From the IMG/VR virus record IMGVR_UViG_3300006803_000022: a DNA stretch of 20,000 nt, one strand, 5' to 3'. Under the pieces are notes generated by a model. The model made no database searches. It had not been told where the DNA came from and saw only the letters and a list, made by a program, of their open reading frames with translations. Origin of the DNA: an uncultured virus (IMG/VR IMGVR_UViG_3300006803_000022). Lineage: Duplodnaviria; Heunggongvirae; Uroviricota; Caudoviricetes. The position numbers and the translations under genes were made by a program. Positions 3,281-18,826 of the stretch are shown here, one piece after another. Each line of letters opens with the position of its first letter. The first letter of the stretch is position 1.

Positions 3281-5120
3281 CTGCGTAAGTCCTTCCTATA
3301 CATGGATCGCCACCATCCATTATTGTTATGCCCATCATCTTAGGGCCTTCTTTGAAACCTTCTTTCAGGATCTCACCTGCACGTTTAGCTTGGTCTTCCT
3401 TCACAGCGAATGCATCTTCGTCATGGTAGAAGATAAGAGGATAAGCATCAATGCCTTCTTCTCTCATTTTCTTATCTGCGTAGTACATAGCTGATACACA
3501 TGAGGCTTTCTCAATGTCTTGTAGCAATGAGTTTAGCGCTTTCCGTGGTTCATCTACGAACAGGATGTTACCCATGATACCAAAGATAAATCCATTGTTC
3601 TCATTCCACTCTTGTTCAAGACGTTCATTGGTTTCTTGGAACTCTGGTAGCTTCTCACAGAAGTTGTCGATCATCTCCTGAGCATCCTTCTCTGGTATCT
3701 GGAACTCTTTGGCTAGGCCAAATGCTTTAGATCCAAATAGGATACGGTAGATGAATACCTTAGCCATCTTTCGAGTACATCCTACCATGTCGGCGTTGTA
3801 CTGGTGCATGTCTTTGTTGATAACGATCTCTGTGTATTCGTCGTTACCCATGACATGACAAGCTCCTCGTAGCTGGTTACCTGCTGAGTCACAGCCTACC
3901 ACTACACGGTCTTCTTCTACTGTCAGAGTTGATCGGATCTCTTTACCATAAGCTACCTTATCGTCATTGCTAGGTAGGTTAACAATACCAGTATGTCTTA
4001 CTCGGAATGTTGGTGTTCCGATAGTCCACATACCACCATTGATACGACCGTCCCCTCGCTTCTCTGCAAGTGTGTTGAAGCCTTCTAGGAAGCTCTTCCT
4101 GTGGCGTAGCATGTAGTATTCTGATACACCCTTACCAACTTCTCCCAATGCCTCTAGAGCAGGTCCCTCGAGCTTCGGAGATACATTCCTCCAGTAGCCC
4201 GATGCCTTACTTCTATTCCATTCATCAGGAACCCAACCTTCTTGATCCATCAGGTATTCTTTTACGTCTGCCATTTGACCCATAGTGACCTTCTCGGTCC
4301 TGAATCTTTGGAAGTGTTCGTTAGGTTTGATGGGTGGGTTAGGTAGTAGGGCGTCCTTGGTCTCGATCTTTACTCCAAGGTACTCTGTCAGCAGCCGGGC
4401 AGTGGTAGCGTTATACAGCCCTTTTGCAGTGTACTTGGGTGTCTTAGGAGCCTTGTCGATCCATACTCTTTTTGTTCCTAGCTTTGGCTCAATCATTCTC
4501 TCGACCTTCTTCATCTTCTTGTCGATGTCAGCGATTGTCTTATCTGCTAGTTCTTTGTCGTATACCCATCCCTTCTGCATATCCATATTCGCTCTACCGA
4601 TATACATCTCAAGCTCTATACGCTTAGAGTAGAGAGGGTTTCTTTTGATGAGTGCTAGAGCTTCTGCGTGGACCTTGTCGTACACCTTACGGTTTACTCG
4701 TACGTCCTGCTTACAGTAGCTAAGCATCTCTCTGTTGTAATGTGACCAATCATCATAATCACCCTTCTTGATACCGAGGTGTTCTCCCCAGCCTTTCAAT
4801 CCGTGAAGGTGTGATCTCTTGTAGCAATTCAATAAGGACAATAGCCATGTGTCGGTTACCTTAGCATTAGGGTCTAACTCAAATCCGTAGATCTTCTTTA
4901 GTGCTAGGAAGTCATAACCGAACAGGTTGTGTCCGATGTGGTTCTTTGTCTGGTAGAGTAGCTCCAACCCATAGTCCATATCTGGTAAGGACTTATCGTA
5001 GTCGGAGAATGCAAATTCTGTCTCTGTGTCGTGGTCAGTGGCACATAGCATCCATACATCTGTTAGGGTGTCTAGTAAGCCATTGCCTTCTATATCCCAT
5101 ACTAGGTTATTAATCTTCAT
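3270..5120 (-). CDS. polA: family A DNA polymerase with 3'-5' exonuclease domain (T7 gp5-like)
   Basis: ExoI WDIEGNG, ExoII HNLFGYD, ExoIII YCKQDV; motif A DSAGNQLR, motif B RKMAKVFIYRILFG, motif C YHDE; GGAGG RBS upstream. Confidence 0.95.
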   Translation of the reverse strand: MKINNLVWDIEGNGLLDTLTDVWMLCATDHDTETEFAFSDYDKSLPDMDYGLELLYQTKNHIGHNLFGYDFLALKKIYGFELDPNAKVTDTWLLSLLNCYKRSHLHGLKGWGEHLGIKKGDYDDWSHYNREMLSYCKQDVRVNRKVYDKVHAEALALIKRNPLYSKRIELEMYIGRANMDMQKGWVYDKELADKTIADIDKKMKKVERMIEPKLGTKRVWIDKAPKTPKYTAKGLYNATTARLLTEYLGVKIETKDALLPNPPIKPNEHFQRFRTEKVTMGQMADVKEYLMDQEGWVPDEWNRSKASGYWRNVSPKLEGPALEALGEVGKGVSEYYMLRHRKSFLEGFNTLAEKRGDGRINGGMWTIGTPTFRVRHTGIVNLPSNDDKVAYGKEIRSTLTVEEDRVVVGCDSAGNQLRGACHVMGNDEYTEIVINKDMHQYNADMVGCTRKMAKVFIYRILFGSKAFGLAKEFQIPEKDAQEMIDNFCEKLPEFQETNERLEQEWNENNGFIFGIMGNILFVDEPRKALNSLLQDIEKASCVSAMYYADKKMREEGIDAYPLIFYHDEDAFAVKEDQAKRAGEILKEGFKEGPKMMGITIMDGGDPCIGRTYADVH

Positions 5121-5235
5121 CTTTTCTGAATACCTCCACTAGTAGTTTGTGTGGTTCAAATACCATGATGAACATATAGGCCGCAAATATCATAGATACG
5201 ATTATGTGCGTCCCTACTTTGTCTTCTGATTCCAC
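5110..5235 (-). CDS. small predicted membrane protein (41 aa), not in ORF track
   Basis: Manual translation MESEDKVGTHIIVSMIFAAYMFIMVFEPHKLLVEVFRKDED; GTG start after AGAAAGGA, the RBS used by many genes in this window; one hydrophobic segment. Confidence 0.6.
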   Translation of the reverse strand: MESEDKVGTHIIVSMIFAAYMFIMVFEPHKLLVEVFRKDED

Positions 5236-5369
5236 TTGCTTTCCTTTCTATTGGAGCAAGGTGGGCATGTATCACATTCATCCTCAACGTCTGATAGACG
5301 GAGACGACTGTATACTTTCCCACAGGTTGTACACGCGTAGTGCACAAATCCATTTAGTTTTAATGTCAT
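5214..5369 (-). CDS. small zinc-ribbon protein (51 aa), not in ORF track
   Basis: Manual translation MTLKLNGFVHYACTTCGKVYSRLRLSDVEDECDTCPPCSNRKESKWNQKTK, with CxxC and CxxCxxC motifs. No clear RBS. Confidence 0.65.
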   Translation of the reverse strand: MTLKLNGFVHYACTTCGKVYSRLRLSDVEDECDTCPPCSNRKESKWNQKTK

Positions 5370-5379
5370 ATTGTTGGAT

Positions 5380-17615: not shown

Positions 17616-17691
17616 TGGCAGCATCGCTCGGATTCGAACCGAGGACCTAGGGCTTAGAAGGCACTTGCTCTATCCGCTGAGCTACGACGCT
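17616..17691 (-). tRNA. tRNA-Arg(UCU)
   Basis: 76 nt. Acceptor AGCGTCG/CGATGCT, D arm GCTC..GAGC, anticodon loop CTTCTAA, T arm CTCGG-TTCGAAT-CCGAG, encoded CCA. One T-C mismatch in the anticodon stem. Confidence 0.92.
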
Positions 17692-17699
17692 ATAGGTTA

Positions 17700-17804
17700 T
17701 GACGCGACTAGGATTTGAACCTAGACTCCGGACGGGTAAAAGAACTCAGTATACAATTGCTGCAGGTTTACCGTTCCCGGGTGCTACCGTTACACTACCG
17801 CGTC
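17700..17804 (-). ncRNA. tRNA-like RNA with anticodon loop replaced by a long structured insert
   Basis: Acceptor GACGCGG/TCGCGTC, D arm GTGT-AACGGTA-GCAC, T arm CTAGG-TTCAAAT-CCTAG. Between them CCGG-GA-ACGG-TAAA-(26 nt)-TTTA-C-CCGT-CCGG. No encoded CCA. Confidence 0.75.
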
Positions 17805-17811
17805 ATATTTC

Positions 17812-18033
17812 TTACTCGTAATATTCTAACTCAAGCCTACGAAATGCATCGTCAATTGATTTAGCAGGAATCTCAACGAATCCTTGTGGTGACCTGCGTC
17901 CTAAGAGTGGGATTACCATGTCGGCGTATAGTTGAAACACTTGAAAGCCTCCTGATCTTGTCTTACGCACTACATTAAGTGCTGGCTTCGGTGCTTTGTA
18001 CTCGAACTTCTTCTTTTTCATAGTCTTGTCCAT
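17812..18033 (-). CDS. hypothetical basic protein
   Basis: 73-aa ORF; the start could instead be ATG 18021. Confidence 0.7.
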   Translation of the reverse strand: MDKTMKKKKFEYKAPKPALNVVRKTRSGGFQVFQLYADMVIPLLGRRSPQGFVEIPAKSIDDAFRRLELEYYE

Positions 18034-18104: not shown

Positions 18105-18431
18105 TCAGGTAGGGTCAGACGGTACGATTTGAACTGGGACGATTGTCAAGTTCTGTCCTTCAATGGCATGGCATTCAGAGTTATCATCCATAATGAAGTG
18201 TACCATGAAGTCTCCATTGTCTCGTGTGAAGATCTTAAGCAATGGTCGTTCATCATCACCAACAAGATATACATTGTTGTAGCCAGCTCGTGCTGAATCC
18301 TGTGTCATAACAATTGAACTTTGACATGGCCCAATAGTTACTTGTTGTGCTCCGTACTCAGGCTCAGCCACTTGAGCTACTGCTGGTGTACATAGTGAGA
18401 GTGCTAGGAGTGTTGTGTATAGTAGTTTCAT
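18105..18431 (-). CDS. secreted/periplasmic protein with Sec signal peptide
   Basis: MKLLYTTLLALSLCTPAVA|Q with an AxA cleavage site; two Cys in the mature part. Confidence 0.8.
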   Translation of the reverse strand: MKLLYTTLLALSLCTPAVAQVAEPEYGAQQVTIGPCQSSIVMTQDSARAGYNNVYLVGDDERPLLKIFTRDNGDFMVHFIMDDNSECHAIEGQNLTIVPVQIVPSDPT

Positions 18432-18826
18432 CGTCTTATCCTTTTATCTATTTCTGTTAAGTAAGCTATCTGCCTAAGCAAATATGTGTTGAGGCCGGGT
18501 GCTTTCTCCGGTAGTTGAGATAGTCCTGAACCTAGTCCGTTCAGCGGGATGATTACAGTACCACCCTTGGCGATCTTACCGAATACTGCAGAGAAGTCAT
18601 TAAATATGATCTTAGATTGTTCCAAGAACTTCTCGTCATTGAAGAATGCATTCGGGTGGTTGGATGGAGACACTTTAGTTGCGATACCATGAGCGTTAGG
18701 TTCACCTCGCATCTCCTTCGCTTGACCACCCCTGCCGATACGATCTACGTTGTCACCAAATAAGTACATGATGTCGGGGTTAGCCTGTAGATCATCTCTA
18801 TAGATCCATCTTTGATAGATAATCAA
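18428..18826 (-). CDS. conserved phage protein, possible macrodomain-like fold
   Basis: YLFGDN..R.G.GGQA.EMRGEPNA.GI.TK and IIP.NGLGSGL motifs; TTG start after AAAGGA. Confidence 0.65.
   Translation of the reverse strand: MIIYQRWIYRDDLQANPDIMYLFGDNVDRIGRGGQAKEMRGEPNAHGIATKVSPSNHPNAFFNDEKFLEQSKIIFNDFSAVFGKIAKGGTVIIPLNGLGSGLSQLPEKAPGLNTYLLRQIAYLTEIDKRIRR

Follow-up and report, generated by a model that had tools for sequence, protein, structure and literature searches.

A tRNA-shaped phage RNA gene with a paired insert in place of the anticodon arm

The window analysed here is a stretch of 20,000 nucleotides from an uncultured podovirus-like phage (IMG/VR record IMGVR_UViG_3300006803_000022). 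At 17700..17804 on the minus strand it contains a predicted gene of 105 nt for a tRNA-shaped non-coding RNA with neither an anticodon loop nor an encoded CCA. Comparison with related phages indicates that the element is very probably a selected, non-decoding RNA. Its shape, the lack of any canonical spliced product and its synteny with compensatory change were established at the level of sequence. A fuller explanation, in which the gene specifies a stable tRNA-shaped RNA whose arm derives from a recurrent CAGCAA 'handle' module and which serves as a protein tether or decoy, is evenly balanced in our judgement.

Position and tRNA body of the element

Coordinates are those of the window, and all parts of the element lie on the minus strand. 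The element runs from 17804 to 17700 and ends 8 nt upstream of an ordinary tRNA-Arg(TCT) with an encoded CCA (17616..17691, minus strand). Its acceptor stem (5′ strand 17798..17804, partner 17701-17707; pair probability 0.55-1.0) comprises 7 bp, is extendable by three A-T pairs and is followed by a discriminator A at 17700, with no CCA in the DNA. U8-A9 and the D arm (4-bp stem, 7-nt loop with GG) occupy 17781..17797, and the T arm (5-bp stem, TTCAAAT loop) occupies 17708..17724. The elbow nucleotides are canonical: U8, A9, A14, an A15:U48 Levitt pair, the D-loop GG and the T loop. On the Rfam tRNA model RF00005 the element scored 41.1 bits (cut-off 29). An earlier sequence-only reading had described intact acceptor, D and T arms with no 7-nt anticodon loop and no encoded CCA; both descriptions were borne out, 56 nt lying between the D and T arms.

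An Rfam scan of 901 nt around the element returned only the element and tRNA-Arg at E<=10. The element matched no family beyond tRNA, and no intron family was found, in agreement with the earlier statement that the insert is not a group I intron. A contig of freshwater run X2 spans the element with one change, a T-stem C-G to U.G wobble, and the element is therefore not an assembly artefact. The same wobble was present in L110 and L111. Promoter and terminator scans gave signals at chance level only. Assembled contigs from RNA runs X7 and X9, which are unable to show absence, had no depth over 17742-17875. The element and tRNA-Arg are probably co-transcribed.

The commonest arginine codon in 13 window ORFs was AGA (78/251), which is read by tRNA-Arg(TCT). 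This tRNA is retained in relatives L108, L115 and G010.

Folding of the insert and tests for splicing

The 56 nt between the D and T arms formed a twice-bulged helix of 12 bp that closes a 26-nt loop. The helix begins with an anticodon-stem stub, CCGG, followed by a 2-nt GA bulge and AC (17773..17780, partner 17728-17733), and continues as a handle-like 6-bp helix (5′ strand 17767..17772, partner 17735-17740). The loop consists of a 4-nt spacer ending in TG and a CAGCAA core (17757..17766), and then 16 nt of variable, dispensable cargo (17741..17756). The 3′ strand of the helix and a following CGT occupy 17732..17740. In the whole molecule, pair probabilities of the bulged helix were 0.34-0.95 and the fold was as first described.

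Folding gain was modest. The whole RNA gave a z of -1.20, with 22/200 shuffles as good, and the 56-nt anticodon domain alone had no excess stability, 749/2000 shuffles being equally stable. It had been argued that a self-paired insert points to selection. Selection itself is upheld by the comparative data below; self-pairing is not by itself evidence of it, because the domain is no stabler than its shuffles. Alternative pairings of the insert were seen in the window, L115 and L116; a pseudoknot is not claimed, as the partner positions differ and X12 is without one of the strands.

A short intron within an otherwise ordinary tRNA would also account for a long insert, and the available part of PMC6784885 reports enigmatic introns in Lak phage tRNAs. 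ARAGORN in default mode, which looks for a 5-bp anticodon stem with a 7-nt loop, did not call the element; its intron mode proposed tRNA-Gly(ACC) with a 36-nt intron. Against this, every single excision that might leave a 4-5-bp stem with Y32-U33-R37 was considered in the window element, L115 and L116, with 0 canonical products and 0 bulge-helix-bulge motifs. The possibility of splicing to an ordinary tRNA, raised in the sequence-only reading as a ground for rejection, thus found no support in the sequence. The anticodons forced on the relatives differ (ACC, AGT, TCA), the close relative X12 removes a different 20 nt at the DNA level, and RtcB was found in 0/5 clade records. An intron is accordingly very improbable, and from its sequence the element is unable to read codons.

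Source phage and gene neighbourhood

The window encodes a T7-type primase-helicase and exonuclease and a family A polymerase, together with a B12-dependent ribonucleotide reductase, thymidylate synthase and rIIA/rIIB. Among isolated phages the best matches were phages of the Roseobacter group, at 35% for the polymerase (CRP-7) and 66% for the reductase (Lentibacter ICBM2), so that an alphaproteobacterial host is likely on protein similarity. DNA of the phage was present in freshwater runs, and contigs of its relatives reach up to ~65 kb.

A clade-specific ORF of 73 aa (17812..18033, minus strand) ends 7 nt upstream of the element and marks the syntenic slot in L116 and L108, where tblastn identity was 55-60%. 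The protein has few homologs and belongs to no Pfam or PHROG family. Its model, a confident one, combined a beta-sheet and a helix (pLDDT 79.8), and Foldseek gave no match at E<=0.001. The best VIA match, HVO_2922 (Z 5.2, rmsd 1.8, 50 aligned), was too weak for naming a partner. At Z values of at most 5.2, the fold bore a weak likeness to HVO_2922/UPF0339 and to dsRBD-like domains. A DUF7831 protein (18428-18826, minus strand; E 4e-41) is also kept near the slot in L116 and L108.

Conservation among relatives

Loci of relatives were fetched by alignment of SSB-like homologs, which gave 2 viral and 14 metagenome loci. Three were the same phage (99.6% over 230 nt), ten ended before the slot, and three distinct relatives reached it (L115, L116 and L108). 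All three carried a tRNA-shaped, anticodon-less element there. In L115 the order was a bL12-domain gene, the element (with encoded CCA) and, directly after it, tRNA-Arg. In L116 and L108 the 73-aa gene was followed by (a bL12-domain gene and) the element, which had no adjacent tRNA in L116 and lay ~2.3 kb from tRNA-Arg in L108. The bL12 C-terminal-like segment matched Pfam PF00542 at E 5e-6 in L115; the L116 match (3e-5) was below the cut-off, and the L108 gene adjacent to the element gave none. Genes with bL12 C-terminal-like segments were noted at L115:2-193, L116:2353-2736 and L108:1379-1579 and 5043-5375, and none at this slot in the window phage. A cytidine/dCMP deaminase-family gene (PF00383, E 9e-8) lies at L116:626-937 (+), ~1.8 kb upstream of the L116 element.

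Helices were matched by position with a script, as MAFFT misaligns the insert. Relative to the window, 25 hand-matched pairs were kept in 24 cases by L115 and in 25 by L116, with both sides changed at 13 and 14 pairs, respectively. The 4-bp anticodon-stem stub was among those kept with both-side changes in the two relatives. Despite this kept pairing, blastn found no similarity of the relatives to the element itself. It had been said that an absence of expression and of homologues retaining the insert helix would mark a pseudogene; such homologues exist in L115 and L116. In L108 the acceptor and T arm were kept and the middle was of another design. The L116 element has a degenerate T loop. At L116:2742-2854 (+) the D loop is without GG and the T loop reads TGCAACC; speculatively, a swap of G18.U55 for A18.G55 may preserve the elbow.

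Neither the acceptor sequence nor the discriminator is constant across the window, L115 and L116. The orthologs therefore have no fixed amino-acid identity, which argues against charging with one amino acid. The cargo loop was likewise replaced, by 16 nt of unrelated sequence in L115 and by 2 nt in L116. A closer relative from a sediment run, X12 (~94% identical), kept the body and helix and was missing 20 nt of the loop, including CAA and enclosing the 16-nt cargo. Its listed changes within the element fell in the D loop, at position 9 and at acceptor position 2 (3/25 differences of that piece were unlisted). G010, a more distant relative (89% complete), had only tRNA-Arg, with no element and no 73-aa homolog.

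Wider searches were as follows. A viral scan with the SSB-like protein gave no match, nor did blastn of the element against 50,697 phage records; L115 likewise matched nothing among isolated phages, and a further search matched only the tRNA-Arg part. A scan for the window geometry gave 0/31 viral matches that were tRNA-shaped by the filter used. The same scan of genomes gave 7 tRNA-shaped cases among the at least 120 matches listed, of which six were ordinary Ser-type tRNAs and one was unclear.

These data bear on whether the element is a decaying pseudo-tRNA, or a processing spacer aiding release of the downstream tRNA-Arg. Either would suit the shuffle result for the anticodon domain, the large indels among relatives, the L116 T loop, the absence of the element from G010 and the lack of an RNA contig over the element, which contigs cannot establish as absence of the RNA. 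Decay is opposed by the pairs changed on both sides, 13-14 of 25. Retention is not accounted for by a spacer role, because L116 has no adjacent tRNA and in L108 tRNA-Arg is distant. We regard both readings as unlikely and favour a selected RNA: a fixed gene slot with nearly all of its sequence replaced is direct comparative evidence that shape is selected.

The CAGCAA motif in the insert

The insert of the window element reads stem GGTAAA, spacer CCTG, CAGCAA, 16 nt, TTTACC and CGT. A scan seeded by the D and T arms only gave 52 viral loci, from which 27 non-canonical long-armed tRNA bodies were obtained; nine contained RCAGCA(A/T). Free-standing modules of similar plan, here called handles, occur in the same phage tRNA arrays and consist of a G-start 6-bp stem, 3 nt, CAGCAA, a cargo, the closing stem and YGT. 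As cargo they carry either an anticodon-like hairpin or, in the topology of YrlA, a permuted T/acceptor/D core. A handle descriptor gave 123 matches against 1-5 in each of five shuffles, the loci having been partly fetched with CAGCA patterns.

A handle profile was built from 82 handles; 8/90 rows, among them every one of the 5 with a 4-nt spacer, had been set aside as chance, and a 3-bit penalty for a 4-nt spacer was set by hand. With this profile, nothing but the window element reached 8 bits across both strands (40 kb), and 0/3000 shuffles equalled its score. Its 15.2 bits lay under all 82 handles (leave-stem-out minimum 16.5, median ~40). The element has the G-start 6-bp stem, CAGCA(A/T), partner strand and YG of a handle, and once a 4-nt spacer was permitted it alone in the window fitted the descriptor; by its 4-nt rather than 3-nt spacer and its score (15.2 vs 16.5) it falls outside the family range. 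A covariance model (R1) of 34 handles, A-rich cargo included, did not find the window element at E<=10, nor the elements of L115, L116, L108 and L135 at E<=5.

The insert of L115 has 6 bp, AATG, CAGTAA, 16 nt, 6 bp and TGT, a spacing identical to that of the window. A strict descriptor (6 bp, NNTG, core, 13-19 nt, YG) matched L115 with a different stem and 0/20,000 shuffles. A looser one matched the window, L115 and L116 (5, 9 and 47 of 20,000 shuffles, respectively) and 0/76 other long-armed tRNA bodies. These descriptors were drawn up after the sequences had been seen. The L116 core reads TG-TAGCAT, X12 keeps only TG-CAG, and the L108 element is without the motif. The predicted MFE structure of L115 was another fold, with the handle fold 0.4 kcal/mol above it. 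CAGCAA, which the sequence-only reading had proposed to check for conservation, is the core of a recurrent phage RNA motif; the full loop is kept only in part, 20 nt being absent from X12.

If only the acceptor, D and T arms mattered, the RNA would be a functional mimic of a tRNA body whose insert merely removes the anticodon, and CAGCAA would be chance or a dying relic. The loop deletion in X12, the other design of L108 and the failure of both the covariance model and the Rfam model RF01414 to find the element are consistent with this, as are T5 RNA1 and RNA2 and T4 RNA C, whose long anticodon helices have no CAGCA(A/T) within one mismatch. Two observations argue the other way: the stem-spacer-core-16 nt-stem-YGT geometry is identical in the window and L115 on different stem sequences, and TG-YAG stands two bases past the helix in the window, X12, L115 and L116. 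A pure body mimic is therefore the less favoured reading, though the strongest of the rivals considered. Homology of the insert to the handle family is slightly favoured.

Several further RNAs were noted. In an unrelated phage with no polymerase match, L135:2494-2585 (+) has CAGCAT in an A-rich loop replacing the anticodon loop, with the topology of the window element. A prokaryotic genome contig, at L486:269-366 (+), carries a tRNA-shaped gene with a 48-nt anticodon domain containing TG-CAGCAT. Free-standing stem-CAGCAA RNAs occur several per tRNA array in L010, L018, L035, L040, L045, L046, L063, L276 and others. In tRNA bodies of L008, L010, L035, L045, L072, L107, L275, L284 and others the handle forms a side hairpin before an anticodon-like hairpin; the triplet of these bodies varies freely among close homologs, and their arrangement resembles the long free-standing form after circular permutation. 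In L132, L140, L142, L143 (about 2494-2600), L004, L009, L011/L016, L023, L028 and L036 the anticodon loop has given way to long hairpins or branched domains that have no CAGCAA. Anticodon-less tRNA bodies seem to be common in phages. In the literature searched, which covers older T4/T5 and subscription work thinly, neither the element nor a CAGCAA motif in phage tRNA arrays was described.

Proposed function

The element would share a transcript with tRNA-Arg and would be matured by the tRNA machinery of the host, through RNase P, 3′ trimming and CCA addition. Cleavage by RNase P and the adding of CCA form the processing pathway of ordinary tRNAs. Intact acceptor, D and T arms would confer stability and a tRNA elbow. 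In place of the anticodon arm there would be a bulged helix capped by a degenerate handle module, which elsewhere in phage tRNA arrays holds tRNA parts. On a Y-RNA-like principle, the RNA may bind a protein as a tether or decoy, presenting the surfaces of a tRNA but no anticodon to cleave, and so might tie up a host tRNA-directed factor, for example a tRNA-cleaving defence nuclease.

PrrC and PARIS are tRNA-targeting systems. A tether or decoy against tRNA-directed defence is a tentative proposal, which we would place somewhat short of even; it is preferred on two grounds, namely that tRNA parts are displayed by handles in other settings and that defences which cleave tRNA can be blunted by phage tRNAs. 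In the available part of PMC13096335, the role suggested for a phage tRNA is that of decoy or supplement in the face of the Septu nuclease. The search for a partner protein found none: RtcB and DUF1127 were each present in 0/5 incomplete clade records, and RRM in 0/5 phage records.

The element offers testable predictions from a single-copy gene, namely processed ends, a partner bound via TG-CAG and protection from tRNA nucleases.

Comparison with known RNAs

Like YrlA (RF02553), as described in the accessible parts of the sources, the element keeps the tRNA elbow, has no anticodon loop and extends the anticodon stem into a putative protein-binding module. The two differ in that YrlA is circularly permuted with a closed acceptor stem, whereas the topology of the element is normal and its free ends form the acceptor stem. 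The YrlA Ro60-binding motif GNCGAAN0-1G was absent on both strands, and assignment of the element to YrlA was rejected on that ground and on topology. The element might nonetheless be a re-wired Y RNA binding a host or phage Ro60: long handle RNAs have YrlA topology and reached 31.1 bits on RF02553 (cut-off 69), and the Ro60 stem of YrlA likewise extends from the anticodon stem in the portion of 10.1101/312249 available. YrlAs lie nearly always within 4 kb of Ro60, according to the available part of PMC4201824, whereas TROVE was found in 0/5 clade records (all incomplete, 28-89%), in 0/5 handle-rich records and in none of 25 window ORFs (PHROGs). Ro60 binding is thus highly doubtful, and the link to Ro60, RtcB or DUF1127 suggested in the sequence-only reading was not supported, each of the three proteins being found in 0/5 incomplete clade records.

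Class I RNAs of Dictyostelia have a 6-bp stem, an 11-nt motif, an AAG start and a CUGU end, as given in the accessible text of Kjellin et al. 2021 (PMC7919456). The element resembles this family (RF01414) in its 6-bp G-start stem, four bases, CAGCAA, variable loop, stem and (C/U)GU, and matches four of the five near-invariant positions of the 11-nt motif described there (T3, C6, C9, A10, A11), T3 being C. It differs in reading AAC-G for the AAG start and in that its stem is internal, grafted on a tRNA body. RF01414 (cut-off 41.5) gave no match to the element (63 nt) at E<=10, and free-standing phage handles reached up to 27 bits, below that cut-off. Class I RNAs bind the RRM protein Rnp1A, and an RRM_1 gene was present in 0/5 phage records.

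Handle RNAs, which are not in Rfam, share with the element the stem, short spacer, CAGCAA, cargo, closing stem, YGT and association with tRNA parts. The element differs in its 4-nt spacer, its short cargo that is not A-rich and its score below the family range. Its handle also takes the place of the anticodon arm and is directed outward from the tRNA core, whereas tRNA-embedded handles are side hairpins before an anticodon-like hairpin. A broader view would make the element a third topology of one modular CAGCAA-handle family, comprising phage tRNA arrays and social-amoeba Class I RNAs, grafted outward as an anticodon arm; on this view it would parallel Y RNAs without depending on Ro60, tethering a host protein to a tRNA-shaped surface and disarming tRNA-directed immunity. 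We consider this speculative and rather unlikely; if it held, the handle partner and the job of T5-type tRNA-like RNAs would be most simply sought in a small phage with a single gene of this kind. A set of 10,006 viral candidate RNAs listed elsewhere (PMC10690425, available part) may include the element.

The closest precedents are T5 RNA1 and RNA2 (GenBank AY543070), annotated as 'tRNA-like stable RNA with unknown functions', whose predicted layout is that of the element: the acceptor, D and T arms are there, and a long helix with bulges stands for the anticodon arm. T4 RNA C (rnaC, NC_000866) matches in part and lies next to tRNA-Arg; the T4 and T5 records give no function. These RNAs lie in tRNA transcription units, as the element adjoins tRNA-Arg, and a tRNA body with an extended anticodon helix in a tRNA unit is also what is predicted for the element. 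They differ in length (125-144 nt), in a variable-arm hairpin and in lacking the CAGCA(A/T) motif, and share no sequence with it; the window phage is podovirus-like, with one ordinary tRNA in the window. Because T5 RNA1 and RNA2 share its layout, the earlier description of the element as a candidate for an undescribed system was too strong. Its architecture is already known, and the element is a variant of the phage tRNA-like stable RNAs. T5 RNA1, RNA2 and T4 RNA C are annotated without a function; the element may also link such RNAs to a motif common to amoebal Class I RNAs.
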